Of a stretch of DNA of 64,000 nucleotides, positions 1 to 57,857 are shown one piece after another (within the stretch, counting starts at the first letter, position 1; every line of letters starts with the position of its first letter). Both the position numbers and the translations under genes were made by a program. The notes beneath the pieces were generated by a model. That model had not been told where the DNA came from, searched no databases, and saw only the letters and a list, made by a program, of their open reading frames with translations. Source of the DNA: Blasia pusilla (Eukaryota); the NCBI GenBank assembly GCA_050084515.1, contig CM114271.1, forward strand, positions 24,552,001 to 24,616,000. Direction: 5' to 3'.

Positions 1-2039
1 TGGGGCGTATAACTCTCCACCGAAGCCGAGAGCTCCGGTTCCAGAGCCACCCTTGGTAGTGACTCCATCATCACTTCCAACGATTCCCAAAATCGGGAGG
101 GCAAGGCCGAAAGTGATTTTGCAAGAGCTCTCGGACGATGACGAGTGAGTTCAAAGAACTCAACGACCAGCTTGATTTGCGGCGTTTGGAGTAGGGACTT
201 TTTGATAATTTGGCGAGAAGATTTCATAGAATAGATCAAATGTCTGATTCCAAGCTTTTTCGGATGATATAAAGCAGAAGATTTATTCGATCGATGGTGG
301 TGCTTGTAAATGTTTGGTGATCATTTTGTCTTTCGAATGTGATCGTCTATGTACTCCACGGTCTTCTACTTTGCAACCCGTCGGATTTCTCCCGCTTGCA
401 ATTTTCACTTTATGACCATCGCAACCCGTCGGATTTCTCCTCCTTGCAACTTTTTGCTTTTTGACCATGGACCCTTTTACCACCTCCAGGCAGCTTTGTC
501 TGATTCGACAGTTGCCTGATCGGACCCTTTCGGATCGGCGATGGCGGGCTTCTTCCCTTGGCACATTCCCTCAACTCGTAAAGGAAGGCGAGGCTTCTTT
601 TCTTCTCGACGTGTTGGATTCCTTCTACCTGTGCGGTTGCCATAGTGGTATTACCGGGGGCGGAGCAGATATTGATCTTGGATGGGTGTCACATTGCAGA
701 GCGTACAAGGTATCTTGCCGAGGAAGGCGGTGGGACTCGAGACAGTTACATGGGACCGTTATGGTGTACCTAGGGGGGCCAAGGCTCTCGGTCGCCAACA
801 TTTTCGATCCCCGTCTACAACCGGCCGGGAGGAGCCACTTGAATCCCGGGACATTCCTTTGGTACATGCCATCGAGGAGAGTTAGGAGTAAATTTGTAGA
901 TGACGAGGTGAAGAAATCATAGACTAGGTTCAATGTACATTTCGAGGTTCCTTCGGAGGTAATAAAGGGCGAGATTTTTGAACCCATAAAGGTGTTGGTA
1001 AAAGTTTTCGGAATATGTTTTTGGACTTGTGGAGGTGGTGCAAGAGAAAGGCCCAAAGGCGAGTGTCCAAGAACAAGTCAAGAAGATTGTACAAGGTGAT
1101 AATGCAGCCAAGTCACTCCATTGACCTCAAGCCTAGAGGAGACAAGGGAGATGGTGTAGGCACTAGGGAGTCTCAGGGTATCCAATGAAGGAGATAGAGT
1201 GCTTGATTGTTTGTTGTAGAGGAGGGTTTGAACCAAGGGGTGGATCTGATTGTTAGGGCCAAGAAATGAAGAATAAGGGGCTAAGAAGAGGTCAATGGAG
1301 GCTGAGCTCAAATGCTTGGACTCTTGTGGGCTAGAAGATTCCTCATGGAAGCCTAGAGGACCTCATTTGAAGGCCATAAAGCTTGAGAATCCAAGGGAGA
1401 GATCTATGGAGTTGAGAGGATCCAAGGAGTGATTTGTGGAAGATTTGTGCGAGGTGGAGCTAAGTGGAGGTGTGAGCGAGGGCGGGGCTCGAACCAGATT
1501 GAGAAGAAGCAAGCATGGGAAGAATATAGAGGTAGATCTCACCTTCAAGCATGTCCAAGAGACAGTCGAGCCTATGCCATCAATGTTGCTCAAGAGGCTT
1601 TAGTTAGGGCAGGTTTAGAAGTAGATGAGGTAGAAATTTCAGGCAGTAGATGCCTTGGAGTAGATGCTTAGGGTTGGCATCCGGGTGGTCCTCCAACAAA
1701 AATACCAAGGGCACCTTTGCTTTTTTGTTGACCGAGATGGGGAGATGTTAAGAAACTTAGGCTCACATGGAGAGTGATGGAAAAATGTTTGTAGTGGTCT
1801 TATGATGTCTACTTTTTTTTCGCCCCAAGGAAAAAGGAGGTTTTTTTAGGGCCAAATGTGGACCACTACCTACTCTCTTCTAAAGATTTCATGGATTTGA
1901 AAGCAAACAAAAATTTCAAATATGTCATAAAGTTTTGAAGAGAGGAGGCGGATTTGGCCCTTTTTTTTGAAGAGAGACTCTCCTCTCTTCCTCTCTTAAA
2001 TCTCTCTCTTACTCTCTCCTGCGAATACGGCCCGGGGCA

Positions 2040-3684
2040 GTGCGGCGTTGCAGGCGGCACAAAACGGCTACAAACAGCACGGCCCTCGATGGTGGGATGC
2101 GACACTCCACGGCATACTCTCCTCAATAAGAAATAAACCCACACTCTGCTCCACAATGACGGTGCAACTCCACGATCGAGACGGTGCCGTGCCGTGCGGC
2201 CACGAACGGCATGGCGCGGCAATCGGCGGCGCGTTACAGCTACAGGCGTCACGGCACTGTGGTCGATCGTCATCGATCGGCTACCAATCACAACATAGCA
2301 CCATGAAATAAAAACTCAAACACCATAATTGGACGTCATCTACCATCACTGGTTGATGACGAAACTGCAATGACGCTGGCGGCCAAACCAAAGTACGTTG
2401 TGGCGGCGCAAGTCAAAGAATCAAAGATCCTCCACTCCGTAATGGCGGCAATGGAAACCAAAGGGTGGACAACATCCGAATGCAGCTCTAAGCAACACTC
2501 GGCAACGGCAACGGCCGACGGTGGCCGGTGAACCCTGGACCGTTGACGGTGACAGTTGACCGTTGATGGTGATGACGAACCGTTGATGTTGACGGTGACG
2601 ATTGACCGTTGATGGTGATGTTTGACTGTGGACCGTGATGGTAGACCGTCGACGGTGATGGTGACTATGAAGGTAACGGCCGCCGCCGGTGTGGCGGCTG
2701 GTTTAGGGTTTGAACAATTTAACCCTAAAAATCACCTAGCAATGGCAGTTTTGCAAGATTGACCATAACTTTTTACTCGCAACTCCAAATTGCGCACCGT
2801 TTGTTGCACAACGTGCACAGCTTCACAGACTACAACAATGTAAAAAGTATTTGGAATTGGAAAATCCAGTAAAAATTGACGGGGACTGTTGTAAAGACCA
2901 ATGTCTCTTTCTCCTACACAAAATTCGGCAGCGACTCCGTGCTGATTTTTCCCAACCAAAATGTGAAACATGTTAAAATTACAAATCAGAAAACTACATG
3001 GTGCTCCCAAGAGCACCGGCATGGGGCAACCTGTCCCCATGATCCATCCCTATAAGAAATTGGGCAGCGCTTCCACGCGCCACTCTTTCACACGAAAAAT
3101 CGGCAAATACGAAGAACAATCAAAGCAGCCCTTGCTCCAGTGAGCAGTCCCATGAGCCGTTGAATGGGGAACACCATCCCCAACCTAAAAGAACATCGAG
3201 TGACCAATGAGCTCCCCCATGAAGCTCTCTCACTCTCTCATTCTCTCTTTGTAAAGTAAGATCCAATCTCTCTCTATACCATCTCACACCATAGCTCTCA
3301 AAGGTGTGCACTCTCTCTCATGTCAAACCAAACCCACTCTCCTAATGAGAGTCTTGGATTACACTCACAAGGCAAGGGACCTCCCCTCACCCAAGGTCTC
3401 ACCATGGTAACCTATTCTCCCAAGTACCTCCTTGGCTCTTGACTTGATGTAGGAGGTCAAAGACTTATTACCAAAAATAGAATATGATCATATACTCAAA
3501 ATGGTACTTACCTAAAATAGTAAGTTCCTCAATATGACTAAAAATGAGCCGAAACGAAGGGGAAACCTGCTCTCTGAGGTCTCTCGGGGCCTCTACAGGT
3601 CATGCTCAACCTATTGAGTATGTTCTCCACTACTCACAAAGGCGCTCTACTAGATCTCAACAATCTGTCCTAAAAGACGTGACA
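2040..3684 (-). mobile_element. 5' part of a Gypsy-family copy (terminal repeat A1 plus 5' leader), inserted in the leader of the plus-strand copy
   Basis: The reverse complement starts TGTCACGTCTTTTAGG at 3684 and matches 13117-13632. The reverse complement of ~2050-2560 aligns with 5035-5520, the leader upstream of gag in the plus copy. Confidence 0.8.
3252..3684 (-). repeat. Terminal repeat unit A1 (no B unit on either side)
   Basis: Homologous to 13117-13632, 56453-56967 and 59256-59774. Similarity stops after GGATCTTACTTTA, where the other copies continue into unit B. Confidence 0.85.
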
Positions 3685-3752
3685 ACCGTGACCACGGCAA
3701 CTGTCGCTCTCATAGTCACTGCCAACAATCCACCGTCAAAGTTACGCAATCG

Positions 3753-5030
3753 ATGGTATCATGTTGAGAGCCTTTCTTCGAGTAAGGGCGGGCCTTCTAG
3801 CTGTGGTATACGTGGTCGATGCAAGGTGAAGTCTCTAAGAAGTTCTCCTTTTTCAATACAAAATTATTATGTATACTCTCCATTCTCTCACGAAAGATAT
3901 CACAAATGGAAGTTTCGAAGGGATCACTTCTTCGTAATATCGGACCCCGGAATTCCTAACTATAAAATCCCTATAAACTACTTTATCCTTGTACAAAAGA
4001 AAGATAACACAACTAGTGTTAAACCCTACTTGAGCAGGCCTATTGACATCCATGGATCGCTATATGAGGACATACAAAGTACAATCCCATGTCCTTCAAT
4101 ATGTGATGATAGGAGAATCACCGGAGTTCGAGATTGCATGACTTGATTCATGAACGCCTCCCCAAAGTGATAAACTAAATAGCGAGTGAACGAGTTCTTG
4201 TCTACAAAGAGTACCTTGACATGGTAAGGATTGAGGAAAGGAAAGTCGGGCACAACTCATGCTCCACCCCTATCCATGCTTGACAGACATTCTCTACTCT
4301 CTTCAAGAATGGGCTTTGGCGGAATTATTCTCCCAAGAAGGATAATGCACTCTCATTAGAAAAATAACAAGCCAAAAGATTCACTATTTTAGTATGGCTA
4401 AACTCATCTAAGATGACAAGCCTCTCATCTCCACACACACACACCACACTCTAGAAACCTCTCGAAGAATAGAGCATGGTCAAGTTATTTTCCCAAGAAG
4501 GGTGATCCACTCTCATTGGAAGAGCAAGCAATCTCAAAACCATACACTCAAGAGTGACACGAGAGACTCAAAATGTGAAATAGAAGGTGATGAACCTTTG
4601 AAGGTACCTCCTCTTTATATACTCACAAAGGATCCACAAGAGTACGAAATAAGGCTAATATTATCTTGTGCCACATGGCTTCCTCTCAAGGCTTAGCCAA
4701 TCATATTTTGACACAAGTAGATTATCTTTTATCTCTTCCAAAATATCCTCGTTTATCCACTTGATATTTTCCAAATTACCCCAACTACCCTAGCGACCAA
4801 CCAAGACTACTTTTGCTTTTTATTAAAGTACCAATCTCACTACTTTACGTTTATAAAGTGATCTTTTATTTATTACCTTTTTTCTTAAAGTTGGGCCCGC
4901 ATAAAAGAGGCACCATAAAGAAGTTTAAACATGGGAATTTCCTTTTCCTAAGCTAATTTACTTAATACAAATAAAATTCTAGGTAACACTTGATGAGGAA
5001 GGAGTTTCCACACTGGCTGATTTTACTATA
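3753..5030. mobile_element. Probable LTR-like insertion of another family interrupting the Gypsy leader
   Basis: Leader homology stops near 3752 and resumes near 5035. The insert is non-coding with a reverse TATA-like CTCTTTATATA near 4611. No TSD found. Confidence 0.35.
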
Positions 5031-6209
5031 CGACAATGGTCAACCGTCACCGTCAACGGTCAACCGTCCACTGTCGGCCGCTGCCGCTACCTAGCGCTGC
5101 TCAAAGCTGCGTTCGGCCGTTGTTCATCCTTGGATTTCATTGCCGCCATTACGGAGTGGAGGATCTTCCACGACGACCGATGTTTCTCTAACTTGTGCCG
5201 CCACCACATACTTTGTTTTGGCCGCCACTGTCATTGTAGTTTCATCATCAACTAGTGATGGTAGATAACATCATGTTATGCTATTTGATTTTTTCATTGC
5301 ATGCTGCTATGTTGTGATTGATAGCCGCTCGACAATGATCGAGTACGGTGACGTGACGCCCATAGCCGCAACGCGTCGCCGATTGTTGCGTCGTGCCGCT
5401 CGTGGCCGCATCGCATTGTGTCGGTCGCAAAGCCACTCCTTCACTAAAGAGCAGAGTGGGTGAATTGTTGATTGAGGAGGGTATGTCGCCGAGTGCCGTT
5501 CCGTGCCGCCAGTGCCGTACCTCACCGCTGGACCTGCACAACACATCGAGGAGGTTTGAGTAGCGTCAGTACGAGAGGAGTATGACTTCTTGATTAGGGA
5601 AGTTGTCTTCACAATCGAGTTGGGATCAAGATTTGCTGTTTCCAAGGAGCGACATCGATATTCTTGTCAGGTTACCCATTCTGGTCTCTTACCCTACACG
5701 TTTGAGGGATTTTCCAAGTATTGGGAAGTTATTTGGGATATTGGGTTTTGTGCTCATGTTGAGAGCATCGATGATGTATGGGTTTAGGAGATATAGACCT
5801 ATGTGGGATGTCCAGAGTTGAGGATGGTTTGTCGATGAGATGATAGATCAATTGATTTGTTGCACCACAATGCTTGTTGCCGCACAACACAACTCTCAAT
5901 GAGAGAGTGTAGATTGAGTGCCGCATGTTTAGTTTGAGTGATTGAGGGATTACTCGCAAGATTGAGAGTAATCGTGTGAGAGGGGCACTAGGGCCATCAC
6001 GGCATCCTTTCAGGATTTTTAGAGGTGAGGTAGTGGACTAGAGAGTAGCTCTCGAGGGTTTACCCGGAGTGGTGTGAGGTTTCAAGGGTCTCCACGTGAG
6101 AGACCATCTCAATCTCCTTCTGTGTTATCTTCAAACAAGGGGGAGTGTTTAGAGGAGTGTGTTAGTGATCCACCTTACACATTGAGTGGTCCTACCAGTT
6201 GGGCGTATG

Positions 6210-7110
6210 AGATGGACAACCGGGGTAGAGGACCACGTAGGTTTTCGGGTGTTGTAGGCACTATAGAGCTACACGACTTCGTTGCCGAGTTTAGGAGTTG
6301 GTGTGACTCACAACGGGCTAGGAACTCAAGAGAGTTCAACCCGTTTACAGCATGGAATGATATGTTCCAGCATTTAGAGGGGCGCCCATGGACGATTACC
6401 ATGAGTTCTTTCAGAGATATGCCTAGGAGATTAAAGCATGGCGACTTTACTATGACCCACACTATGTGTCATGGACGGAGCCGTTCCCAAATGAGGAGGA
6501 GGAGTCAGGAGAGGCTACTTCCTCTTCCACTAGTGATGTTTTATGAGGGGTCAACATCACTCAGGGAATGATAGAGACTCAGGCTATCCAATCATGGTAC
6601 GCGATGCTGGACCGGACCCTACGGACACGGGTGCGGGAGGGAGTGCTTCTTATGAACACCTCCCGTACGTTGAGAGATGTTTGTAGGACCAGCGAGAACA
6701 TTGAGCGCAATATGGAGGAGGAGAGCATAGCCACCATGGATTCTCGACGAGAGGAGTCACAATTGCCTGCACCTCTAGTGCAGCAATGTGGACTCCGAGA
6801 TAGGTCGACAGTGGCACCACGAGCTTAGGGAGGATACTGGGAGGCCGTGCGACAGAGACTTGCGCCTTCATATGTGGTTCACCAGATTCCGCCCACGATT
6901 ACTTGTTGCTCATGTGGTGGAGCCCATCATCACCGTGATTGCACTCATCAAGGTCATGGACGTGTGCCTTAGCATGGAGGAGGAGACGGTGTTGCATCAA
7001 GAGGTTATCAGTGTGACTATTTTCAGAGGTATGGTCATACATGCGCCAAGTGTTTCAGTTTACACCTTGAGTTACGTTTGGACCGAGGGCCAGAGAGGGC
7101 AGGAGAGCGA
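6210..7110 (+). pseudogene. gag-like region with degenerate zinc knuckles
   Basis: FSGVVGTIELHDFVAEFRSWCD gag-like stretch; CCSCGGAHHHRDC near 6904 and CDYFQRYGHTCAKC near 7012; frameshifted. Confidence 0.65.
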
Positions 7111-7977
7111 GTAGCCGGTCTGAGTGGGCTTAGAGATCGTGCACCAGGTGGTCTTGTTGGGGGACGAGAAGCTGGAGTTTCCCGACAGGGTGGTGGAGCT
7201 GCCGGTGGAGGAGGTAGACTCCGAGCGTGAGGCTGGGATGGTTTCTCAGATACAACAGCTACACGAGCAAATTGCCGTTATAACATTGAGGCTACCTGTT
7301 GTCGGATCCGGGGCATCAACATCATATGGAGCAGCCAGAGATATGGAGGATCCTGGTTGGATATGCAGGGTTGCCCAGATGGAGGCCGGCGTAGTTATGA
7401 TGCGTGGACACTCGCAGAGTTGGATCCACAATGAGGGGAAGCTACGAAACATACCAGACTTCCTTTGTCTTTCACATTGTCTGAGGCGACGAGGATCCCA
7501 TCGATGGGTCCCTTGGAGAGTTGGTGATGTTATTGGTGTGCAGGCACGCAGGGCAATGGGAGAAAGGAGTGCGATGACTCCTATTGTTGATGGTCAGGAG
7601 GAGCATGTATTGAGTACGATGTTGAGGGCGGCCACGATGGTATACCGTGCTCTGCTATTTTCTGCTTCGGATGTTATGACATGGGGAGATACACCCGTCG
7701 AGTTGTTCCGGCAGGCCGCTATGCTATGTTAGCATGGAGTTGGAGTTCTTGCATCACGTTCATAGGAGATTGCAGAGGAGGTGATGGACCTGCCCTTGGA
7801 GCGGATGCTCAGGCCGTCCACGTTAGATTCATGGCAGGCTACAATTGCTAGGATGGCGGACATGCCCGCTAGACCCGCGATAGAGCATGCCATGGCCTCT
7901 CCTGGTGTTGTGTTGCTAGATAACCAGGGAGATGTCTTCCACTTGGTGAGTCCGGAGGTAGATCTCTCAGTCCGCAA

Positions 7978-8300
7978 CGCGTCTTGCTGGATTCAGGAGC
8001 GCAACCCCTTATGTTGGGAAAAGCGTCATTCAGAGGATTGGGCTTGTCGAGAGCCAATGTGGAGCGTTGTCCATTCCGGATATAGAGATCCTTGGATGGA
8101 GTGAGTACCACACAGTATATCACCCGACAGGAGGTCCTGGTGAGGATTTTCCCAGGACAACCTACAGATGAGTCTGTGGTGCGAGCCAAGGCAATAGTGA
8201 TTGATGGAGATTCCTACGACATCTTGGTTGGTGGAGCAGTGTTATACCCGATGGGATTTTTCCTAGATTACTGGGAGGAGTCAACGCCCTACAAACCCGG
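7978..8300 (+). pseudogene. Retrotransposon aspartic protease
   Basis: RVLLDSGAQPLMLG (catalytic D at 7990) and downstream YDILVGG motif near 8215. Confidence 0.8.
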
Positions 8301-8703
8301 ATGGCAGTCAGGTGATGGGCGCCTTACCTCATTACCCATTCGATTCATCGATGCAGTGATCGAGCAACACCCAAGAGAGATGGCGACCTTAGCAACATTT
8401 AGTAGTGCCATCACTTGGCCAAGTGATTTGATTGAGGGACATGTCCATGCAGAGGATACTCTTGTTCTTGAAATTTCTATGGAGAGGAGTGTCATGATAG
8501 CCACATCAGTCCGTGGAGGAGAGGTGCCATTTTGGGGCTCGATTGAGGAGCTTTGACGCTTAGCCAGTGAGCATGCCCATACGACGTGGAGCAAGATGTT
8601 TGCACCAGAGTGTGAAGGTTCAGAGGAACCCGTGGTAGCCAGGATTGCTGCTATGATCCCTTTGGACACCACCCCGATTGTGTGGTGCATCCCATAGGAG
8701 TGT

Positions 8704-9630
8704 ATTCGGGTGTTGGATCTTTTGAAGGGATCAGCACTGGGTTAGTTGCTATTTTGCAGGCAAGAGTACGCGTGCAACCGTACATATATGTGGAGATTGA
8801 TGATGTTGCAAGGCGTGCTTCACTTCACCATGTGGCGCAGTTACACCTCCGTTTTCCTGACTTGTTGTCTGCGTCCGCTATCCACGGATACCAGAGTTCC
8901 CTACCGAGGGATATTTCATTGTTGGGGGTGCAAGACTTGGAGCGGGTAGGGACCATAGATTTGGTCATTGCTGGTTGGCCGTGTTTGGGCCAATCAAGTG
9001 GAGGTTAGATGACACTCAGTTTAGGTTGTTTTGGGAGATGATGCGGATTTTGCGATACTTGCAGGAGCATGAGTCTCGTCCTCCAGCATACATTCTGGAG
9101 AATGTGCCAATTTTGGGCGATTTGAGGTCCCGCGTTATGACGAGTGCACATCAAGTGCACGCATGAATCGGCCCGGCAGTGTTTTTGGATGCGGCGAGTG
9201 TAGGTTCTAGAGCACACTGCGCGCATCTTTGGTGGACCAACTTGGTGCCACATGAGGTTTTGCGGAGGGCGTATACGAGAGTGGAGCGCCCCTCCGATTT
9301 GTTGGTGGTTTCTATATTGGATCCGGGATGTCGATCACAGCCAGTGAGGAACGATGATCGACTGTCGTTGACTATGGTCAACATGATTGGCATGCCACGG
9401 GCAGTCTTTCCCATATTGGTGAGTTTTCCCGCTTCCTATGCATTCAAGGAGGTTGGACCTGGCTTGGTTTGGGATGACCAAATATAGAGGTTGGTGGAAC
9501 CCAACGCCGACGAGCGAGAGCGAGCGATGGGATTCCCCACAGGAGTGACAGAAGTACCGTCACTATCAGAGGCATCACAACATCATGTCTTGGGTCAGGC
9601 GATGGACCTGAACTGCTTGACATGGATTTT
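8704..9630 (+). pseudogene. DNMT3-like C5 cytosine DNA methyltransferase domain inside pol
   Basis: Motif I IRVLDL/FEGISTGL (1-nt frameshift), II YIYVEID, IV DLVIAGWPC, RLFWE, VI YILENV, VIII FLDAASVGSRAHCAHLWWTNL, IX ERERAMGFP, X VLGQAMDL, in unpermuted I-X order. Confidence 0.92.
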
Positions 9631-9999
9631 CATCTTAGAAGTAGTTGAGCAACGTCGTTTGAGGATGCAACAGATCACAGCAGTTGCGTTGGTGAGCCCC
9701 ATGCCTACTGAGAAGGTTGAGGCAATGGCAGGGGGCAAGACCCAAGGAGATCGATAGACCAAGGGTGATCGGAAGAGACTCCCTTGGACTTCTTTGGATG
9801 TCTTGGAGGTACGCTAAGAGATGGTAGCCACAGCATCGAGCGTGGTTCCGGGTATTGCAAATGGAGATCCGATTTTGCAGTTGGCTATAGCGGAGCAATC
9901 AACTTTTCTTTCCCGAGACGGGGTTTCACCATAGCAACCACCAACACTCGAGCCAGAGAGTCCTACCATTGTCACGATGGAGACTTGGGAGTCAGATAT

Positions 10000-10800
10000 G
10001 GGCCCTAAGTTGACAAAAGGAGAGCGGCGCTGGATACACCAGTTCCTTAGGAGTTATAGGAGTTGTTTTGCATTTAGTATGCATGATTTGGGTACGCTGA
10101 AGGGTCCACGGATCCGCATTGATTTGTCGAGTGATACATCGATCTTCTGACGATCCTACAGGTACAGTGACATAGAGAGGGCTCTGATTTAGAGTAGGAG
10201 CCAGGACTTGGTTGGAGCAGTACTAGTGGAGATGTCGCATGGAGAGTATGAATCTACCACTTTCATGCATGCCAAGAAGGATGTGCATGGCAACTGGACG
10301 GATAGGCGGATCTGTGGAGATTACCGACCTATCAATCGGCAGATGAAGTCGGATAGGTATGCCATGCCCACTCCTGAGGAGATCTTCAATGCTATTCGAC
10401 ATGCAAAGATCTTCAATTCGTTAGATCTTTGAGCCGGATACCATCAACTGCCTATCAGATTGGAGGACAGGCAGAAGATGGCATTTTGGGGCATCGATCC
10501 TCACGCAAAGGATTGCTTGTACCAGTGGCGGTTCTTACCATTTCGGTTAAAGAACGCCTCGGATGAGTTTTAGAGGGTCATGGATAAAATCTTGGCAGGT
10601 GTGGATTTTGCTAGGTATTAAATTGATGACATCGTAGTCATAAGCGTCATGGTTGAGAAGCATGAGCGACATCTAGAGGAGGTGTCTCAACGATTGTAAT
10701 TACATGGGTTGAAGCTACATCCAGGCAAGTGCAAGTTCTTCTATGACCAGATTGAGTACTTTGGTCATACAATATACCCATGTGGCCTTGGTGTGCAACA
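10000..10800 (+). pseudogene. Gypsy reverse transcriptase
   Basis: KKDVHG...RICGDYRPIN...DRYAMP, LDL*AGYHQ, LPFRLKNA, *IDD (YIDD site, ~10619-10630), LKLHPGKC. Confidence 0.93.
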
Positions 10801-11450
10801 GACAAAGATAGAAGCTATTTCACGCATTCCACGCCCTACAGATGTGAGTTGAGTCAGTGCATTCATGGGATTGGCAAACTTCTATCGACGGTACGTCAAG
10901 GATTTCAGCTTGATTACAAAGTCGCTCACCTTGCTGACCAAGGTGGATTAGGAGTGGCACTGGAGGAATGAGCACGAGAGAACATTTCAACCGCTCAAGG
11001 ACAGATTGACGTCCGCGCCCATATTGAGGAGACCAATCAGGGGGCGTCCTTTCCAATTGCATACCGATTGGAGCATGTTGGGGCTTGGAGCTGTGCTCAC
11101 CCATCATGACGATGATGGTAGAGAGTTTGTGGTGGCTTACGCTAGCTAGTCGCTCGAACAACGCAGCAAAGGCGAAGTATATCTTGTATGAGGGTGGATG
11201 CTTGGTTGTAGTTTGGGTTGTTGCACATTTCAGATGTTATCTATTAGGCAATCCCTTTACCATCATTACTGATCATCAGCCACTTAAGTGGTTGATGGAG
11301 TCCGACAAGCTTACACGGAAACCTTCAAGGTGGGATCTTTTGTTGCAGGAGTATGACTTCCATGTGGTGCATAGACCTAGGATGCTCAAACAGGATGCAT
11401 ATGGTTTGAGCTGTAACCCATGCCCAAGTCAGCGAGATGCGACTGGAGCT
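10800..11450 (+). pseudogene. Gypsy RT connection and RNase H
   Basis: FMGLANFYRRYVKDFS, FQLHTDWSMLGLGAVL, YEGGCLVVVW, FTIITDHQPLKWL, RWDLLLQEYDF. Confidence 0.9.
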
Positions 11451-11809
11451 TGTAGGCATGGTGAGAGTGATGAGGAGTTTTTGCCAGGATGGCATGCGTC
11501 AGCCTATTTGGGCTTGTTGGCTATGCAGAGCCAGATTGTTGAGACTTTGATGGCGAGGTGTGATGGAGAGTCCTTAGATCCAGAGGTTGGTGAGGAGATG
11601 ACAAGTGGCTGAGACATTCACGACAATGGCATGGTCTTGGAGTACCTGCGTACTGGCAGCGTCACGAGCACATTGGGTACTAGAGAGCGGGATCCCATCC
11701 TACAGCGAGCCAGACGGTTCCGGTGGGAGGGGACATATTTTTTGCGAGTTTGGGAGGATGGTAGAGTGTGCGTGGTGCCTCATCCTTCATAGAGAGCATG
11801 TTTGGTGCG

Positions 11810-12535
11810 TCATACCCATGAGGAGTTGGGTCATTTTGGAGTAAAGCGGACGTACAACTTGCTCCAGATATAGTATTGGTGGCAAGACATGCAGACTGAC
11901 GTTCATCAGTTTGTTGCCAGGTGTATGTGTGATCGAGTCCGAGCATCGTTCATTGCTGCGACTCCACAGTGCATCCACTTCCGATCATGGGTTTAGGTTA
12001 TAGATGGAGTTTGGATTTTGCAGGACCTTTGCCTTTGACAAAGCGCCATAGTTGTTATGTGTTGGTGATGGTCAAGGACTTCTCAAAGTGGACAGAGTTG
12101 GTTGCATTTCCTGACAAAACAAGTGAGGAAGTAGCGTATGCCTTCCTAGATCGAGTGTTGAGTCATTACAACACACCATTTGAGGTGTTGACAGACCAAG
12201 GTACATAGTTTCGCGGGGAGTTTCAAGCCTTGTGTGATCAAGCGTTGATCGACCACCACACTACTTTGCGAGATCATCTTGAGGCGGATGGACTAGCGGA
12301 GCAAGTTGTGCAGACGGTGAAGAGAGGATTACGCAAGTATGGCTTGCAGAGAGATATACCTAGGAGATTGGGACTTCCAATTTCCGTGGTTGGCGATGGG
12401 ATACAGATTCATCACGCACGCATCCTTAGCATCTTTCTCATCGTACTTGCTTTTGTATGGCCGAGAGCCAGATTTACCTACAGCCATTCGTCGAGATGTT
12501 GGTGAGGTGTTGAACCTTGATGACCCTGATGTATG
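11810..12535 (+). pseudogene. DDE (rve) integrase with N-terminal HHCC motif
   Basis: HEELGHFG...C.C; WSLDFAGP; LTDQGT*F; DGLAEQVVQTVKRGL. Confidence 0.92.
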
Positions 12536-12659
12536 GTGTTATCTTATTGGAGGGACGCGATGGTATGGTTCGGAAGGACCATTGCGTAATTGTGCACCGT
12601 GTCACCTTCCGAACATTGACGGTACAATTGATCCAAGCTTAGCAGTAGTTTCTGCAGGC

Positions 12660-12806
12660 TTGCGATGTATGTTGTGTGGTTGTGCCCGTGGTGCACCCAC
12701 AATGCTAGTATGTGATGGATGTTCGAGAGGATGGCATATGGCATGTTTGACGCCATCTCTCACTAGGGTTCTTGATGGACAATGGATGCGTCCCAGATGT
12801 ACATAG
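12660..12806 (+). pseudogene. PHD finger at the integrase C-terminus
   Basis: CMLCGCARGAPTMLVCDGCSRGWHMACLTPSLTRVLDGQWMRPRC (C4HC3 with one Cys lost), then the stop codon. Confidence 0.88.
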
Positions 12807-12977
12807 AGTAGATAGTTCTACATTCTGACTTGTGTGTGCGACATGGATGACAAGTATGCGACTAACGATGGGGCCACATGAGCACCCGACCTTCTTGCTC
12901 TTAACGTCCGAGAGATGTATGTCATGGTAGATAGGGATATATAGCTATCTGGAGTTAGAGGGACCTAACCACCAACT

Positions 12978-12987
12978 AGGGGGGCGA
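12978..12987 (+). promoter_or_regulatory. Polypurine-tract-like sequence
   Basis: AGGGGGGCGA directly before repeat B1; same position in the copies at ~57097-57106 (-) and ~59113-59126 (+). Confidence 0.65.
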
Positions 12988-12988
12988 T

Positions 12989-13746
12989 TAGAGATATTTT
13001 GGTACTTCTTGTCTCGTTGCTTGGATGCCATGAGTTAGCATGGGATCGTGCGTGTTTGTGTGTGTGTTTGGTTATAGCGATGTATGTTGTGTAGCCATGT
13101 GTATGCGCAGGACAACTGTCACGTCTTTTAGGATAGATCAGTGAGATCTAGTAGAGCGCCTTCGCGAGTAGTGGAGGACAGGCTCAGTAGGTCAAGGATG
13201 GCTTGCTGAGGCCCCGGGAAACTTGAGAGAGCAGGTTTTCCCTTCGTTTCGGCTCATTTGGAGCCATATTGAAGAACTTACTATTTTAGATAAGTATCAT
13301 TTTGAGTATATGATTGCATTTCTATTTTTGGTAAGGGGACCTTGACCTTCTACATCATGTCAAGAGCCAAGGAGGTGACTTGGGAGCATAAGTTACCATG
13401 GAGAGAGATTGGGAGAGGGGAGGGATATACCTCAAGGAGAGAGAGCTTGAGAGCTCATTCTTTCTTTGTTGAACCTCTTGGCATGAGGCAGCGGAGCTAT
13501 GGTCTTGCTTGCCTTGTGTGTGTAACCCAAGCCTCTCATGAGGAGAGTGGGTTAGTTTGACATTGAAAGAGACATGTGAGAGTGCACGCATTTGAGAGCT
13601 ATGGTGTTGAGAGAGATTGGATCTTGATTTATTGGACATATTTTGGTACTTCTTGTCTCGTTGATTGGATGCCATGAGTTAGCATGGGATTGTGTGTGTT
13701 TGGTGACAGCAATGTATATTGTGTAGCAATGTGTATGCGCATGACA
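12989..13746 (+). repeat. 3' terminal repeat block B1 (12989-13114) - AC - A2 (13117-13632) - B2 (13633-13746)
   Basis: The ~120-bp B unit (GATATTTTGGTACTTCTTGTCTCG...GTGTATGCGCA.GACA) occurs twice around the ~515-bp A unit. Junction reads GGACA AC TGTCAC. Confidence 0.88.
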
Positions 13747-14125
13747 CGTCCCCTATAAACACTCCCCTTTTTTGTTTTTTTCCATCTATCCTCCGTGTTT
13801 ACTAATTATTTTCTCTCCCACCTCTCTCAAAGGGCTACACATGGGTTGAATCCATCTTGAAAAGGTGTGTTTTTTTTAAGTCGTTAGTTCATATTTATCA
13901 AGATTATAATGAATTCCATGAGTGGAAGTTTGTTTTTCCTAGTGATTTCCTCTAGTATCCATACAAAAGTTACTAGTATTTAACACTCACTACCTCTTAG
14001 GATGAAAGACGACACATGATGAAATTTAGAAATGTGTAAACTTACTTATGTGAAAATATTTGTATGAATTAAAAAGTTTATATCACTTTTTCAAGGGCTC
14101 TTTTGAATTTCAAATTCTTGTTAAC

Positions 14126-14610
14126 ATCTATATAATTAAAAGAGGATGGGATTGGAAGAACACTTCCTCTGGTGTTGACATTTGTACTTTTTACACTCCT
14201 CCGATATTATCACATGTTATATTTAACAGAATAATTAAAATAACAGGTCATAGACTTAACAAATATCTTTTCCCTCTCTATGAGTGGCATAATTCCCTTA
14301 GTTTTCATCGTGAGGGAATTACGCTAATTTTAAACTTATTACATCTCAATATGACAACTTTTGGGGCCAATCTCTAAATTATTATAGGAGAGTGTCTTCT
14401 TGATTTGCAAATAACTCTCTATTTGACACGTGGCAAAGTGGGTAGAAAAAAACATTTCATATGCCATGCGCACCCCAAAAAAATATTAGAATTTGTGTGC
14501 AACATCATTAGTCCCTTCACGGGCTATACACTATCCAAAGCTCTTCAAACACTTTGTTATTTCCAATGTACCTAAATAGTACATACTAAGTGTCCGTTGC
14601 AAATGGATAA
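14126..14610 (+). mobile_element. Helitron-like non-autonomous fragments
   Basis: A|TCTATATAATTAAAAGAGG start, with relatives near 55673, 61351 and 61527. The GGAGAGTGTCTTCTTGATTTGCAAAT module recurs at ~33682, 33887, 39620 and inverted at ~34320, 35140, 40030, 53100. Confidence 0.5.
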
Positions 14611-14849
14611 TTTAAATTTGGATAGGGAAAAAGATGTATGTCATCATACCTACTAAATGGGAAAATATGGGAAGTAATTGATTAGCCTACTCATGTGGTA
14701 AGAAAATCTACTACAATTAGTGTCGTTAGGGTAAAGTGCCCATCATGGTGAGAAAACCTCTGCTATTTACTAAACGCAGTTTCTGAAGGAAAAAGTACAC
14801 ACAATGTCGTAGACCCCTCGCCATAGTATGAGAATACAAAGCATTTACT

Positions 14850-15070
14850 GCTCCCTTTGTTGCCTTGCGCAATAAAGGGAGCAATAAAACTCGACAGCCT
14901 TTATTGCGCAAGGCAATAAAGGCTGTAAATGGAGTGGACATTGAAACAAGAGACTTGTTCATAAATAAAAAAATATCCACAGCCTTTATTGCGCAAGGCA
15001 ATAAAGGCTGTCGAGATTTGAAATTGGAGTGGACATTGAAACAAGAGACTTGTTCATAAATAAAAAAATA
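14850..15070. repeat. Duplicated hairpin-containing repeat
   Basis: ACAGCCTTTATTGC-gcaag-GCAATAAAGGCTGT perfect hairpin at 14894-14926 and 14979-15011, a related hairpin at ~14850-14882, and a duplicated GGAGTGGACATTGAAACAAGAGACTTGTTCATAAATAAAAAAATA. Confidence 0.85.
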
Positions 15071-15289
15071 AACTACAGGTTAGACGTGGTGGAAAGTAGG
15101 AAAAGTTGGTTAGCTCGATTCGTTCACATCCTCGAGGTCGCGGGATGGAACCGCACATAGTTGAACCTCAATCAGAATGCATTTCATAAGATTTTTACAG
15201 AAAGTATTACGCACTCTCCACACTAACCTCCACGGACGCGACCATCTGAACAACAATAAATGTTGTTGGTTCTCGGTTTATCGAGAGCC

Positions 15290-15512
15290 TCTAATGAGCG
15301 TTTGTGAAGGTAGGTAGGGCCTTGCAATACTTGGTCTACATGGGCGAACTCCATAGTTTGTCCCGGAATCGCATTGAAGGCGCGTAGGGTAGCGTCTACC
15401 TCGAGCTGGGTCGGGCCTAGGTTTCAGGTTCGGGAGCCCCGGGATGGAGAGGTCGCGACGGAGGGTAAAGAGGTCGCGACGGAGGACGGACGCCGTGCGA
15501 AGACGGACGGAG
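15290..15512 (+). repeat. MULE left TIR
   Basis: TCTAATGAGCGTTTGTGAAGGTAGG...CCCGGAATCGCATTGAAGGCGCGTAGGGTAGCGTCTACCTCGAGCTGGGTCGGGCCTAGGTTTCAGG is the reverse complement of 27227-27461. Confidence 0.92.
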
Positions 15513-15619
15513 AGGGCGCGCCGGTGAAGTTTGGTCCCCATCCTCGTCCGTTGGAGGGACGGACGGCGTCTGACGGAGGATGTTTAGGACTGCCTTGGAT
15601 GGACGATGTCCGTCCGTCT

Positions 15620-15980
15620 GAGGCTTTCTCCGCTTGCTGTCGCGGCTCTCTCCGCTTTCGGCTTCCTCCCGCTCTGTTTCGCTCTGTTGGTGTCGCCGCG
15701 GCACTCTCTGCTTTCGCCTCCCTCTGTTGGTGTCGCCTGCTTTCGCCTCGCTCTGTTGGTGTCTCCGCGGCTCTCTCTGCTTTCGCCTCGCTCTGTTGGT
15801 GTCGCCGCGGCTCTCTCTGGTCTCTCTGCTTTTGCCTGCTTTCGCCTCGCTCTGTTGGTGTCGCCTGAGGCTTTCTTCGCTTTCGCCTCGCTCTGTTGGT
15901 GTCGCCTGAGGCTTTCATCGCTTTCGCCTCACTTTGGACTTCGTCGTCGCGGCTCTCTCTGCTCTCTCTGCTCTCTCTAC
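15620..15980. repeat. Subterminal imperfect tandem repeat
   Basis: Repeated GCTTTCGCCTCGCTCTGTTGGTGTCGCC and CGCGGCTCTCTCT units. Confidence 0.85.
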
Positions 15981-18428
15981 ATCTGGATATCCTGAAGATT
16001 TGCGGCCCCAGCTCCTCGACAAGTTTGACACTGGTGCGTATACACATATTTTTGTTGAACTTGTTCAAAGTTTAAAAAACTTGTTCAGCTTTTGAGGAAC
16101 TCCTTTTTTGCGACCCCAGCTCCCTGATAAGTTCGGCATGCACGCACAGGTGCGTATACCCATATTTTCCACTCCTTTAGGGACGAATTCTATCTGATCT
16201 TGATTCGTTTTTCCAGTAAATGACCTCCGTTCACAACAGGTGAACATGTCCCTTGTGTTGAACTTGTCCAGCGTTTGAGAAATTTCGGCTCTATCTGCTC
16301 CATTTGCTCTCGAGCTCTCTCGGCTTTCCATCTGTTTGATCTGAGCATTTTCTCTAAACCTAAACTCCGTTCTCAGATTTTGCTCCGCTTTTGTCTTTCT
16401 CCACTTTTGGTTGTCTCCGCTTTCAGCTGTCTCTACTCCGCGATGTCGTCTCTCCTCAAGCTCTCTCCACTTTCGATCGCGATGTGTTCAATCTGAGAAC
16501 TCCGTTGTATTGTTTGTACTGGGAGCGACTGGAATATCGACCTTGGGCGGATATCTGGTGTGTGGTGTCCCCTGCGCTTTTGTTGGCCTCGTCATTGACC
16601 AAGTTCTAGACGATGTGTGAGAGATCCCCTAATCTTTCACTCATAGCATCAATGCCGCCTATAGATGGACAGAGTACTTGGCAAGGTCTATCATCAAAGG
16701 GACAACGAAAGCCGAAACTCATCCACAATCATCACAGAGAACATACTTGTGACATGATTTCTGAATTTCCTTGGAAGACAATGTGAAAATTGAAGAATCT
16801 GGCAGTATGCCAGCATTCATTGCTCTGTATTTCTCGTTCTGGTCTCCTACGATCCGCTGGGACTCGGGAGAACTAAAAGTTTGCTTCGGATATTGCTTAC
16901 GTAAAGTAGCCATTCAGGCAGCAGTAGCAGCTTACACCTGGAAGTTTGGTAACTGAATTTCGTTATCAAGCTAGAATCCTAGCGATCAAAGACGCGTAGT
17001 TTCCAACTTGACGTGGTTGACTCGTCCGTATAGAACCTTGATTCCTAAACCCAACGAGTCGAAACGAGTAGTCACACAAATGTGTCAAATTGTGAGTGTA
17101 TCGCAAGAGCACACGAGAAGGTTTTGCAATATTGGAGGTGGTGCCGGTCCGACATACATGTTGATTGTTTGTAGAGCTTGAGCTTGTGTATAAGAAAAAC
17201 AAGATTGAGCTTGTGTAAGATTGATTTGAAAGTGGCCCGATGTCCATGAGAAGATTCATCTCATGTGAGGCAGAAAAAGCTTTGAGAGCCACAGCTTTTA
17301 GGCAGAGCAAAACCTGGTAGCCTTTAAGTAAGACTAAGTGAGTGATTGTCGGGGATAGATAAGGTGAGTTTTTAGATGGAAGTCAAACATTTAGCTCAAT
17401 GTAAAGATGGAGTTCAGCAGCTAGTAATGGAGTTTTGAAGACTCACGTCTCCGAGGACAAGTGTTGACTATCCTCTTCTTTCCGCGTCTATGTTATGATC
17501 GATGTTTTAGGGTTTGGTGGGGTCATTCACAGCTCTATCATTCCTGCTGCAGTTCTCGACGTCCAGCCCATAGGAAATGACATAAATCACTCCACCGTCG
17601 AGAAGCGAAGATTCGGAGATTTGGGTACCTATGTTAGGTCTTTTCTTTGCAGATCATAGCGGGTGTTGGATTCCTACCTCTTTACTTCTGGATGTATGGG
17701 ACCATACCAGTACTAGTTCTCTTGCCGTTGGATACTTTGGCCTTAGTCTGGTCATTGGGCATCTGACAATTTATCGTAGTTTGGCAATAGTGAGTACGAT
17801 ACGAAGGGGGAGTCAACACCTTTTCACGAGAAGGACGACTGTTTCAAGTGAAGTATGCTATCGAAGCTATTAAGGTACTGGTTAAATCTGTCAAGAAGCT
17901 CCGTGAGACTGTCAGACTGTTACTTTGGTCATTTTTTGGACTTGTTGTTGGACATCTCTCCACTCCTAAGTTTGGTTCCAAGAGGGTTAGTCTATTAATA
18001 TGTATCCAAAATTCTCAAATTTTATCCCAGACTCTATTTGAAGCTAGACTTTCTGATGCTTGCATCCCCATAGCCCGTTTATCTCGAACTTCATTTTTCA
18101 TCATCAAATTGGGACGGTTGGGGCTTACGAGGTTTTTCTATGAATAGGGTTTACTTTTCTTTGACATCAATTTGTGCATCAATCGTTACTCATGATAATG
18201 TTTGTGCTCCTTTGTGAATTCTGGAAACAAGCTGCTAGCAATTCGGACCATCTTGGACAAGGATAAATCAAACGAGGGTTCTCATGAGCTTCTTGAATTG
18301 TGCTTGTTTTTGGTATTGTGTAGGTTTGAAGGTCATTAGTAACACTGGAAGTCCGCCATCGACATTACGTTTTTTGAGGCAGTAGGGGAGGTAGGTTTAA
18401 AGCCACCAAGGATCAACACATTAGGGCC

Positions 18429-23399: not shown

Positions 23400-26300
23400 C
23401 CTGTACTACATACAAATTATCGGGTCTTCTTGAGTACTCATCGGTTTGACTACCCTCCGCAACATATCGCTCTTCATCCAACAGACTATCAAGTATGACA
23501 TCTGCAGTGGTTCTCTTTGTAGTAGTGCTGATTTTGTAGTTCTTATGTGGCCTTGTATCAACCAGAGGCCATTCGATCGATCTGAGTATTCTCCTTAGTT
23601 GCCTCGCTTTCATATTGGCTCACGATAGCCCAAATCAAGATGATCACCCGTGATCCGATTCCAATTCCGCCTCCATGTTCTGATATTTTGATCGTTTCAC
23701 TCTGGGAAAGGACTCCACCTGATTCATTGTTGCTTGGGGTTGATTCTTCCGTGTGGAACGTGTGGAATGTGAATTCCTTCTCTGATGCATCCGCTCAAAC
23801 CAACCCATCCGCCAACGCAGCCGACGATCTTGAGAATTGCCTCCAACAAAGGGTTCAGGGAAGTGTTGTCCAATGTTCATTACATTTTTTGGAAGTTCTG
23901 TGTTCGTCTCTATCCGCGCCTTCAGGTTCAGAAGTGAGTCCATATCCTTCTACAAAAGTACATACAAATGTTCAAGAAGAACACTGCAGAATGGGACTCC
24001 AATGGTTGTGGCCAAGCATTTTTCCACCATCTCTCGAACATCTTCCTGAGTTGTTGCTTGTGATACAACAATCAGGAGTAGTAGCTTGCACCTCTTCTGG
24101 ATAACCAACACCGTAAGACAAGTCTGATTCCACTGGTGTGTCTCCATGTTGCTCCTATGCATGCCTTTGCACCATGTTTTCCAACCCACCAGCTTTGCTA
24201 CCAAAACGTGTGCCAAGGAAAGACAACAACTCTACTTCAGAGTGCCCACTCAACAGTAAGCACTTCACTTGATACAATTAAAAAAGTCTCAGTAGGCTGC
24301 ATGTAAAATCCTCGTACATCTAGTGCAAGAATAAGACATACTTAATACATAGGACTGTTTGATTTCAGGTGGGACTATAGCTTGGTCACCAAATCTGGGA
24401 TGCAAGAAACACACCTGATGTTTGCACGTGAATCCTTCATTGACACGAGAGCATGTACAAGCAACATCTTTCTTGTCGTAGTCAACCACATCATGCCAAT
24501 AGTCGGGCTTGGAGCAACTCTTCACCATTGCAGATTTCCTCCCATCTACCAATTGAAATGTGACATGACTCTCTGGGATATCATTTGCCCTTCTAATAGC
24601 CATGAGAATGACTTTCTGGATTGCCTTGTTCCTCACCATACCCTCTCGTTTCAAAAATCCCAAGTACCAAAAGAAATCTTCTATTTCCCCGCATAAGATC
24701 TGCACAAGCCATATGAGCTTCCTGGTGGGTTTTGTAGGCATGCTAGAAGTGAGATGCATCTTCAGAGTGTGGTGCCACCTTTCTATCGCGGCATTTGTAT
24801 CTTGGTTGGATCTTGCATGCTTACGATAGCCCTTTGCCCAAGTAACAATCTTAGGATGCCAATAGTTTAAATAGTATTTCACAAAGTGACGTTCAGTTGC
24901 AGCCCACTTGCGCATGAAACGATACGAGACATCCACAGGATCTGGGACAGACAACCATTGCTTAATTAATATGAACCCTACTCCCACAACGGACATAGCT
25001 GAGAAACAATGAAACAAACTACTATTATTGACTCACATAGAACATACCTTCTTCACGTGAGTACATGATACCACCCAAGTCCCTGTTCATGTCTGCTTTT
25101 GTAATTGGACAACGGACTCGTTGGTGCAATTTCTTTAACCAATTCTTCCTGACATGCCATAGACACAGGTCTATGGGAACATCAGGGAAGACTTCTCTGA
25201 TTGCAGATTGTTCCTCTTTGGAGTCGTCAACTATGAAGCATGACGGTTTCCAACCGGGGCTACCAACCGACGCAAAATCTCTTGTCATATATGTATCTGC
25301 CCAATCCTTGATATGGGCCAATGCATCCACTAGATCCCGATGTTGATGCCTCTGTAAAATGGCCCATACTAGAGGTAATCCGTTCTGAAACTTGTCAAAA
25401 CCCAGCAACGTGAATAGCTGATACTGTGAACATAGAAAAGAGTGTGTTCAGGAATCCAATTGTTCATGTACATATCTATTAAAGTGAACACAACGTTCCA
25501 AATGTTACCATTTCTGCCAGATCGTGCAGCAATTTTCAAATGATAGCACAGAAGTAATGTAGCCTATAAACTCCTCTAAGAGAATGACATTACAGTTCTG
25601 AGGTCGTGAAATTACCTCATATGTGTTTGTGCCATGAGTGGCATCCATGGAGATGGCTCCACCGTTACCAAGATGCAAAAGATTCTGAAGCATCCAAGGT
25701 GTAGAAATGACCAGGATGAAAGGTTGGCTTAAACTTGAAATGGCCTCCCTGTAGTGTATGACATTTTCAAGATGAGCTGCAACCCAATGTTGGATTGCAG
25801 TGGCGTCATCGGTTCCATCATACCCCCCTTCGCGTCTTCGCATTGAATGCTTGATATTAAGGATGTCTTGTGGTTTTAACATAGCGTCCCTGCCCCAAGC
25901 TTGTGCCTCATTAGGATTATCGAGAATGTGTTCACGAATCCATCTCCTATGCTCCTTCATGATATTTAAGAGGCTCACGTTTACTCGCAATAATCGTTCA
26001 ACAAAATCCCTACAATGAGAACTCAACTTCGGGGAAACAATAGCATTCGCAATGTCCGCAGTCCTGTATAAGTCCCCATGGCATATACAGCCCGCCTTAT
26101 CGACATGCTTGGAATGCATATGCCTCAACATAGAACACCCAGGGCGGTCCTTTGAGGTTACAACGGCAAAGTGAAATTGGCATCCACGTCCCTGAGACAG
26201 CCCAAGCCGTGTACTTTGGCTTTCTGGCCTACTACCCTTACCTCCCTTGCAGTGCAGGTTTGAATCAAAAACCTCACTTGGCAGAGAGGTCCAGACGGTA

Positions 26301-33081: not shown

Positions 33082-33209
33082 GCCACAAATTCACACAGCC
33101 ACGCTCTCTCCTCTCATGAATCAGCGCGTCAAATCGACACCAACGAGCACTTCCTTCTCTGCCTCCGCCCCATGCCACAAATGCACCCACGCACGCTTCC
33201 TCCACTCCC

Positions 33210-57856: not shown

Positions 57857-57857
57857 G

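Follow-up and report, generated by a model that had tools for sequence, protein, structure and literature searches.

A DNMT3-like cytosine methyltransferase domain in the polyprotein of a Ty3/Gypsy-type retroelement of Blasia pusilla and other bryophytes

Introduction

Transposons that carry an enzyme normally used for their silencing present a paradox, and a locus of Blasia pusilla raises it in the form of a question: does a cytosine methyltransferase that lies inside a retroelement belong to the element, and what might it do there? The locus is part of a 64,000-nucleotide stretch (GenBank assembly GCA_050084515.1, contig CM114271.1, positions 24,552,001 to 24,616,000 of the forward strand), which we call the window and number from its first letter. 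A preliminary description, made from the letters alone, had placed a DNMT3-like C5 cytosine methyltransferase (MTase) in the polyprotein gene (pol) of a Gypsy retrotransposon, between the protease (PR) and the reverse transcriptase (RT). We consider it highly probable that window 5034-13747 (+ strand) holds an old and no longer functional copy of a Ty3/Gypsy-type element from a bryophyte lineage, and that the MTase is an integral and conserved module of this family.

Retrotransposon-borne DNMT3 domains have been published for Klebsormidium and for dinoflagellates (de Mendoza et al., 2018; PMC5890265), and the preliminary description was right to present the concept as known from dinoflagellates and charophyte algae; a 2026 preprint likewise cites 'streptophytes (Gypsy-DNMT3)' (10.64898/2026.05.21.726589). 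Klebsormidium is the one streptophyte example so far, with no demonstrated activity and no genetic system.

Results

The window encodes an unpermuted methyltransferase domain

Window 8701-9613 (+) encodes an unpermuted C5 cytosine methyltransferase, with a signal far above chance. The domain and its motifs, recognized from the wording of the motifs, profile matches and relatives, are as follows.

8701-9700, +, DNMT3-like C5 cytosine methyltransferase domain, unpermuted
8701-8721 and 8724-8741, +, motif I, CIRVLDL, then a break, then EGISTG (frame 1, then frame 0)
8970-8984, +, motif IV, AGWPC (frame 0)
9023-9037, +, the word RLFWE (frame 2)
9092-9106, +, motif VI, ILENV (frame 2)
9206-9244, +, motif VIII, SRAHCAHLWWTNL (frame 2)
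9512-9538, +, motif IX-like, ERERAMGFP (frame 2)
9590-9613, +, motif X-like, LGQAMDLN (frame 2)

All of these lie on the + strand between the LLDSGA word of the protease and the RT, as had been described, although the domain begins at about 8701, three bases earlier than the start at 8704 first given. The motif order I-IV-VI-VIII-IX-X is canonical, and the circular permutation of the DRM type, in which motifs VI-X stand ahead of I-IV, is not seen. The frame 0 stretch 8724-8984 reads EGISTG...DLVIAGWPC. In motif I (8713-8741) LDL is followed by a frameshift and EGISTG; the conserved F is gone at the break, and the G is one that the family keeps. The catalytic Cys of motif IV (PC) and the ENV of motif VI are present, whereas in motif VIII the two Arg of RxR, both of which the lineage has, are replaced by C and H (AHCAH) and have thus been lost in the window copy. 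Frameshifts lie near 8722 and 9003 and in-frame stops at 9164 and 9485, with a further stop at 8695 just upstream. The domain has neither introns nor a flanking duplication, and the frame path leads directly from PR through the MTase to the RT.

In a library of 1.84 billion proteins, a search with window 8996-9700, read through with X at the two stops, gave 815 matches at E<=1e-3, of which 424 reached E<=1e-10 and 40 reached E<=1e-30. The comparison with the Pfam profile PF00145 that the preliminary description suggested gave a divided answer: the MTase pieces of the window score 15.1 and 13 bits, below the gathering cut-off of 22, and intact relatives pass it (P0329, 35.6 bits; P0336, 35.1; P0027, 46.1; P0007, 45.5; P numbers denote individual relatives). 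Companion PWWP or ADD domains were not found by Pfam in the window or in the relatives, and there is instead a PHD finger at the far end of Pol.

Kinship with DNMT3

The preliminary description had called the domain DNMT3-like, and two lines of comparison bear this out. With the read-through of the window as query, 26 of the 27 PDB matches at E<=1 are DNMT3A, B or C. Searched against the PDB, a profile of the clade matches DNMT3A best (56.9 bits, E 1.4e-14), and the top 29 of its 58 matches are all DNMT3A/B/C; M.HhaI follows at 37.8 bits, tobacco DRM at 32.3 and DNMT2 at 16.8, and no DNMT1 or chromomethylase (CMT) chain was matched at E<=1 in this search. The second line is the fold of P0225, the closest of the relatives whose domain is almost complete: its AlphaFold model (predicted local distance difference test 84.5, predicted template modelling score 0.83) retrieved only DNMT3A and DNMT3B down to rank 50 with Foldseek, at E ~5e-13, template modelling scores (TM) of 0.5-0.6 and 20-24% identity. 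As far as solved structures tell, the MTase is thus predicted to be DNMT3-like.

Compared with animal DNMT3A/3B/3C (PDB 6w89, 8tdr, 6kda, 8tci and others), the domain is alike in motif order and in the wording RLF.E, ENV and AHRAR..W.N; it is unlike them in lacking PWWP and ADD, in lying inside a retroelement polyprotein, and in having GW[PE]CQ in place of GSPCN. The parallel in wording first reported therefore holds as a likeness, but the words then quoted (IRVLSLFDGI, DLVIGGSPC and others) are those of DNMT3A and not of the window. Plant DRM2/DRM (PDB 4onj, 7l4c) is similar in being a DNMT3-derived plant de novo methyltransferase. It matches at only 26-32 bits, with profile positions 2-123 falling on DRM C-terminal residues 238-353 alone because DRM is circularly permuted; the contrast drawn earlier between this unpermuted domain and plant DRM is therefore sound.

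The methyltransferase is part of a Ty3/Gypsy-type polyprotein

The coding parts of the surrounding element, and the segment that precedes them, are listed here.

5034-5498, +, segment x, 5' untranslated-like, the leftmost recognizable part of the element; 75% identity to 2100-2565 inverted; DNA depth ~855-980 against 2-5 in the flank
6209-7950, +, gag, degenerate, with frame changes; colinear by tblastn with Mp_4g09160 (P0329) residues 9-624 and Sphagnum P0374 residues 3-485
7012-7053, +, zinc knuckle in gag, decayed, CDYFQRYGHTCAKC
7924-8560, +, retropepsin-like protease, frame 1, with LLDSGA at 7984-8001; matches the PR of P0171 (668-837), P0027 and P0329 (608-909, 43% identity)
10310-10774, +, reverse transcriptase, with IDDIVV at 10622-10639; Pfam RVT_1 E 2.7e-20, 73.4 bits, on read-through 9701-11146
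10961-11360, +, RNase H (RH) of the Ty3/Gypsy kind, crossing a frameshift near 11140; Pfam RT_RNaseH_2 E 3.3e-16, RT_RNaseH E 6.5e-18
11784-12355, +, integrase (INT), H2C2 zinc domain (HEELGHFG at 11817-11840) and DDE core; Pfam Integrase_H2C2 E 3.6e-13, rve E 1.4e-13
12666-12806, +, PHD finger at the C-terminus of pol, followed by a stop at 12804; Pfam PHD E 4.6e-7, 30.2 bits; positioned as in P0171

The element thus reads gag(CCHC)-PR-MTase-RT-RH-INT-PHD. In the succession PR-RT-RH-INT, and in having a DDE integrase together with an H2C2 zinc domain, pol is of the Ty3/Gypsy type. Residues 668-2340 of P0171, an uninterrupted metagenome polyprotein of 2358 residues, are colinear with window 7969-12788 over five frame changes, and residues 9-1243 of Mp_4g09160 (P0329) with window 6227-9802, which takes in gag, PR and MTase (both by tblastn). 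The intact relatives P0027 (CCHC-PR-MTase-RT-RH-INT) and P0171 have a single open reading frame (ORF) through the MTase, and colinearity with them corroborates the earlier statement that the MTase is part of the polyprotein. The window RT is 60% identical to Marchantia MARPO_0091s0058 (tblastn), and the integrase core 60% to P0171 and 73.5% to Sphagnum P0374. Pfam gave no match on the gag knuckle region (6973-7230) or on the PR piece of the window.

At least five frameshifts and 21 in-frame stops lie along the pol path of 1635 codons; the final stop may be where pol truly ends. Two stops (8083 and 8554) are in PR, two stops and two frameshifts are in the MTase, 13 stops run from the C-terminal part of the MTase through RT and RNase H, and the integrase has a frameshift near 11967 and a stop at 12206. 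This copy is dead, as had been noticed at the outset, because of its in-frame stops, its frameshifts and the mutated RxR.

Relatives in bryophytes and green algae

The best matches of the window MTase are in Calypogeia fissa (57% identity, E 4.5e-74) and Marchantia polymorpha (58%), and against Marchantia P0329 identity is 62% over 8721-9005 and 54% over 8936-9802. A profile search added 14 Marchantia models of 949-1333 residues, one protein of Sphagnum fallax and eight of Closterium, together with single proteins of Haematococcus, Cymbomonas and Monoraphidium; their annotation is hypothetical, unnamed or a generic Pol or reverse transcriptase. The same MTase module is thus present in elements of Marchantia, Calypogeia, Sphagnum and Closterium. 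A search of the ESM Atlas returned generic PF00145 clusters, the best of them mostly Streptophyta, and two single-protein scans of metagenome contigs found no relative.

Domain order was typed with seeds taken from P0027 and P0029. Wherever a named Marchantia, Sphagnum or Closterium protein has a PR, CCHC, RT or RNase H seed match, the MTase follows PR/CCHC and precedes RT; four Marchantia models have the MTase alone. The Monoraphidium and Cymbomonas proteins read RT-RH-MTase-INT(-PHD). Among 121 relatives of at least 1000 residues, 26 have the order PR-MTase-RT, 94 have RT-RH-MTase-INT or part of it, and one has the MTase alone. The MTase therefore occupies two positions in pol, PR-MTase-RT in the named streptophytes and RT-RH-MTase-INT-PHD in the named chlorophytes and most metagenome matches, which could reflect a move within one lineage or two captures.

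Several independent models of about 1280-1340 residues (P0329, P0162-P0168 and others) stop 70-90 residues past the MTase, where P0027 and P0171 continue into RT. Some lineages may have an ORF boundary or recoding site between MTase and RT, and not between gag and PR.

Two trees were built, both of retroelement MTase domains only and without a host DNMT3 outgroup. In a FastTree of 173 rows the window groups with liverwort sequences (five rows, SH-like support 97) inside a 44-row clade (99) that contains all 29 PR-MTase-RT rows. A quick IQ-TREE of 98 rows, from which four short rows (P0375-P0378) were dropped, places the window in a 22-row bryophyte clade (SH-aLRT 100), in which 16 Marchantia rows, separated by very short branches, are joined by Sphagnum, Calypogeia and three metagenome proteins; this clade is nested in a 70-row PR-MTase-RT clade that is split from 28 RT-RH-MTase-INT rows at 99.

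Copy number, transcription and constraint

Raw reads of the same species were placed on window 5001-17000 at 80% likeness. In the whole-genome shotgun run X12 the quiet flank bins have a depth of 2-5, and the 164 reads at >=99% likeness fit a coverage of ~2-3. Depth over the element is ~855-4700, with 1501, 1971 and 2337 in the MTase bins, 2200 and 2118 in the PR bins, and 2064, 3130 and 2757 in the RT bins. Most of the copy-equivalents, which number several hundred, thus contain the MTase; the figure is approximate, depth at 80% likeness being a rough measure of copies.

In X12, 133955 of 173255 reads are less than 90% alike to the window, so its copy is old and diverged. At four of the five inferred pol frameshift sites and at two gag sites, between a third and two thirds of the reads differ in length, and many other copies must therefore be without the breaks of the window copy. 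Among transitions, the window has A/T where the reads have G/C at 638 places and the opposite at 312, an asymmetry that fits decay of the window copy by C-to-T changes. The observed/expected CpG ratio, taken as a sign of past methylation, is not distinctive (0.67-0.80 in the element, 0.62-0.90 elsewhere) and tells less than the transitions do. DNA reads leave the window sequence for other, well-agreeing letters (agreement 0.90-0.91) at 12536 (1848 reads) and 6553 (1159 reads), and there seem to be at least two subfamilies that differ beyond these points.

All three stranded RNA runs (X15-X17) cover the MTase bins at 33-89 on one strand against 0.3-8 on the other. Depth rises to 346 near the 3' end of the element, and the other strand reaches up to 16 outside the MTase bins; given the usual library type, the covered strand is the sense strand. 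The family is therefore both abundant and transcribed in the same species. Some reads of each RNA run (13, 6 and 7) skip 53 bases at 5905-5959, which no read of the DNA run does; the skipped stretch is bounded by AG..CA and not by GT..AG.

Among 219 family domains the catalytic Cys is present in 211/211, the ENV Glu in 216/216, the two RxR Arg in 214/218 and 215/217, and the motif I Gly in 190/193 of those that could be counted. Ten Marchantia models (45 pairs) have a mean identity of 0.922 in the MTase, 0.895 in PR, 0.852 in gag and 0.853 in the linker, so that the MTase is the most conserved segment, and at least four proteins of the bryophyte clade (three Marchantia models and P0330) keep all six motifs checked. 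At the level of protein sequence, the catalytic residues show long-term constraint. The preliminary description would have given up its reading had the domain been present only in this copy, as a chance insertion of a host gene, or had it evolved neutrally while RT was constrained; by depth it is present in many copies, and in Marchantia it is the best conserved of the four segments compared and not the fastest to change.

The residue before the catalytic Cys is Glu in 123 of 212 family members and Pro in 77 (GWECQ versus GWPCQ), an unusual swap of a conserved proline.

Terminal repeats and other copies in the window

No direct repeats of at least 80 bases flank the coding part in window 1-30000; the element ends in split direct repeats and not in two ordinary long terminal repeats (LTRs). 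The repeats of the main copy and the further copies of the family in the window are as follows.

12987-13116, +, repeat B1, ~128 bases, ending ...GACAAC; 84% identity to 13631-13746
13117-13631, +, repeat A2, ~515 bases, starting TGTCAC; 85% identity, inverted, to 3380-3684 and 3252-3376
13631-13747, +, repeat B2, 3' end of the element, ...GACAC; likeness to two other window copies stops there
2100-3685, -, second copy, 5' fragment: A alone (3685 down to 3244), 679 bases, then segment x (2565-2100), from self-comparison
56344-57775, -, third copy, 3' end: integrase C-terminus, PHD and B-A-B; 56344-57557 is 81% identical to 12534-13746
57857-59908, +, fourth copy, 3' end: part of pol, an insert of ~1 kb and B-A-B; 88-89% identity to 12730-12968 and 12963-13746

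A B-A-B tail stands at the 3' end in all three window copies that hold that end, and all stop matching at the second B; past B2, DNA depth falls from ~2560 to ~14 in the next bin. The third copy also matches P0171 residues 2183-2344 at 50% identity (tblastn) and the Pfam PHD profile at E 1.7e-11. Since A starts with TGTCAC and B ends with GACA plus one or two bases, the outer edges (TGTC...GACA) are of the TG...CA type. An A repeat in + orientation was not found upstream of 5034, and the 5' end of the window copy was not located; this copy is probably truncated there. Left of the element, a second full copy on the minus strand was considered and rejected, as only repeat A and segment x are present there, with no gag.

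DNA reads break off behind 13114 (1195 reads) and before 13117 (1257 reads), with unlike letters beyond (agreement 0.32-0.33), a pattern that many independent insertion junctions would give. Taken together, the element ends are A-coding-B-A-B split direct repeats, in agreement with the description of the KnitGypsy-Dnmt3 layout. The strings at these break points have a weak AT-rich consensus and look reverse-complementary, which hints at integration into AT-rich, weakly palindromic targets.

The third and fourth copies stand with their 3' ends head to head ~300 bases apart, each with a PHD part and B-A-B, and the insert of ~1 kb in the fourth copy is at 58095-59098; the pair may be a rearrangement or nested insertions.

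Neighbouring features

An exon at 32479-33090 (-) encodes the N-terminal ARM part of a KDM8/JMJ30-like JmjC gene and is its first coding exon (Pfam ARM_KDM8_N E 5.4e-40). Its five best matches, at 51-64% identity, are in Calypogeia, two Marchantia and two Riccia species. Judged by this gene the host is a liverwort, and the land-plant setting that the preliminary description had read from the neighbouring genes is supported, the five best matches of the exon all being liverwort.

MULE-type transposase ORFs at 24289-26341 (-; Pfam MULE E 5.6e-11 on 25025-25447) are apparently less decayed than the retroelement. A GC-rich stretch at 43614-45839 (+) holds an open frame of 741 residues, rich in Ser, Ala and Gly, with no Pfam match. 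Tandem and dispersed short repeats occupy 15290-16100, just downstream of the element, and 27228-27461; 15290-15511 is 90% identical, inverted, to 27228-27461.

Discussion

The view that the MTase is an integral, conserved module of a bryophyte retroelement family has several points to answer. The window copy itself has been non-functional for a long time, and neither its MTase nor its PR pieces are called by Pfam above the cut-offs. Nearness to DNMT3 is indicated by PDB profile scores and predicted fold, not by phylogeny. The depth figures include 109161 of 173255 placed DNA reads that fit only partly, and the RNA reads stem almost entirely from other copies (13, 18 and 9 reads reach >=99% likeness), which does not prove expression of an intact copy. 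The constraint figures are at the protein level, and the Glu that replaces Pro before the catalytic Cys in 123/212 members cautions against over-reading function. The A...B-A-B layout was pieced together from four fragments and read break points, with the 5' end of the main copy not found. Finally, in the only published assay of a Gypsy-borne DNMT3, that of Klebsormidium, the domain gave no methylation in yeast, a result that the authors call inconclusive (PMC5890265).

With these points in mind we put forward a mechanism, as a whole tentatively. The MTase would be translated within the polyprotein and then either freed or left tethered, and would act on DNA within or close to the machinery of replication and integration. 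New cDNA, or the DNA at the integration site, would be methylated, and a new copy would thus bear the mark on arrival. The PHD finger at the C-terminus may read histone state and steer integration, or the MTase, to a given state of chromatin. Self-methylation of cDNA is a proposal of de Mendoza et al. (2018; PMC5890265), and for the lineage of the window we infer it only.

Somewhat unlikely, yet deserving to be weighed, is that the domain has been kept for another role, such as methylation of host DNA round insertions, methylation of RNA, or service as a DNA-binding or chromatin tether of the pre-integration complex. The Gypsy-borne enzyme has no demonstrated activity (PMC5890265), the substitution of glutamate for the PC proline in more than half of the members counted is unusual for DNA C5 methyltransferases, and the PHD finger suggests chromatin reading. 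However, the near-invariance of the catalytic Cys, the ENV Glu and both RxR Arg speaks for catalysis, both the fold and the best matches point to a DNA methyltransferase, and DIRS-borne DNMT3 domains do methylate CG in yeast (PMC5890265).

We regard as quite improbable that the MTase of the streptophyte PR-MTase-RT lineage stems from a capture of its own, independent of KnitGypsy-Dnmt3 and of the chlorophyte-like RT-RH-MTase-INT-PHD lineage, in which case the window element would be convergent with them. The two positions in pol and the clean split of the architectures in the tree (99) fit such a history, as does the lack of any protein named Klebsormidium among the named search matches, and recurrent capture is a published theme (PMC5890265). 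Yet both architectures share GW[PE]CQ, AHRxRxW.N, ERERAMG and LGxxMDxN, which DNMT3A lacks, and match each other at 130-215 bits, against 57 for the profile on DNMT3A. The same C-terminal PHD finger is often found in both, the split-repeat ends fit the description of the Klebsormidium element (PMC5890265, Fig. 4c legend), and a move of the domain within one lineage is the simpler explanation. That a host DNMT3 gene or fragment landed by chance in a single copy has a negligible probability and is refuted by the order that the relatives share and by DNA depth: polyproteins of Marchantia, Sphagnum, Closterium and metagenomes have the same domain at the same position, its depth (1501-2337) is like that of PR and RT, and PR runs directly through it into RT with no introns and no flanking duplication.

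Returning to the MTase as a family module, the closest known system is KnitGypsy-Dnmt3 of Klebsormidium nitens (PMC5890265), which also has an intronless, unpermuted DNMT3-like domain with its key residues kept, in a Gypsy-type Pol of a streptophyte host. The A-coding-B-A-B layout has been described for DIRS-type elements, and the Klebsormidium element combines this DIRS repeat structure with Gypsy domains (PMC5890265, Fig. 4c legend), as does the family described here. The two are likened by description, not by sequence or Pol position, and they differ in host, a charophyte alga there and a liverwort here, and in number, few copies (PMC5890265) against hundreds of copy-equivalents. SymbioDIRS-Dnmt3 of dinoflagellates (PMC5890265) is similar in its DNMT3-like domain in Pol and its split direct repeats, and has de novo CG activity in yeast; it is unlike the present element in having a tyrosine recombinase in place of a DDE integrase, an RT of an unrelated lineage and a host of another kingdom. 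Further Ty3/Gypsy-type elements, namely the chromoviruses, which have a chromodomain at the C-terminus, DAM-LTR and EpiLTR, likewise add a chromatin reader after the integrase, a DNA methyltransferase in Pol, or both (10.64898/2026.05.21.726589). In the present family these modules are a PHD finger and a DNMT3-like enzyme. EpiLTR elements have a cytosine methyltransferase that is sister to DNMT4, the DAM enzyme methylates adenine, and DAM elements are reported absent from Streptophyta (10.64898/2026.05.21.726589).

In the open literature we found no report of a land-plant case or of the Marchantia gene models, supplements, which may list species, being outside this search; nor did a search of the open literature on six gene identifiers find any. 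What is added here is that these elements reach bryophytes, a model plant among them, and that the MTase has two positions in pol across the green lineage.

A broader history can be sketched, although it is doubtful in its entirety. Ty3/Gypsy-type elements with split repeats, an integrase tagged by a PHD finger and a catalytically competent DNMT3-like enzyme would form one ancient lineage that extends from green algae to land plants, with the MTase after RNase H in a chlorophyte-type branch and after PR in the streptophyte branch. This lineage would still be transcribed, and possibly mobile, in liverworts including Marchantia polymorpha, where its enzyme would add 5-methylcytosine to new copies of the element and perhaps to host DNA.

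In summary, land plants have the same kind of element as Klebsormidium, and one liverwort has it in hundreds of copy-equivalents with sense transcripts. Transposon copies annotated as hypothetical proteins are among the DNMT3-like genes counted in bryophyte genomes. As Marchantia polymorpha has models with all of the checked catalytic motifs, the role of a retrotransposon DNMT3 becomes testable in a tractable model plant.

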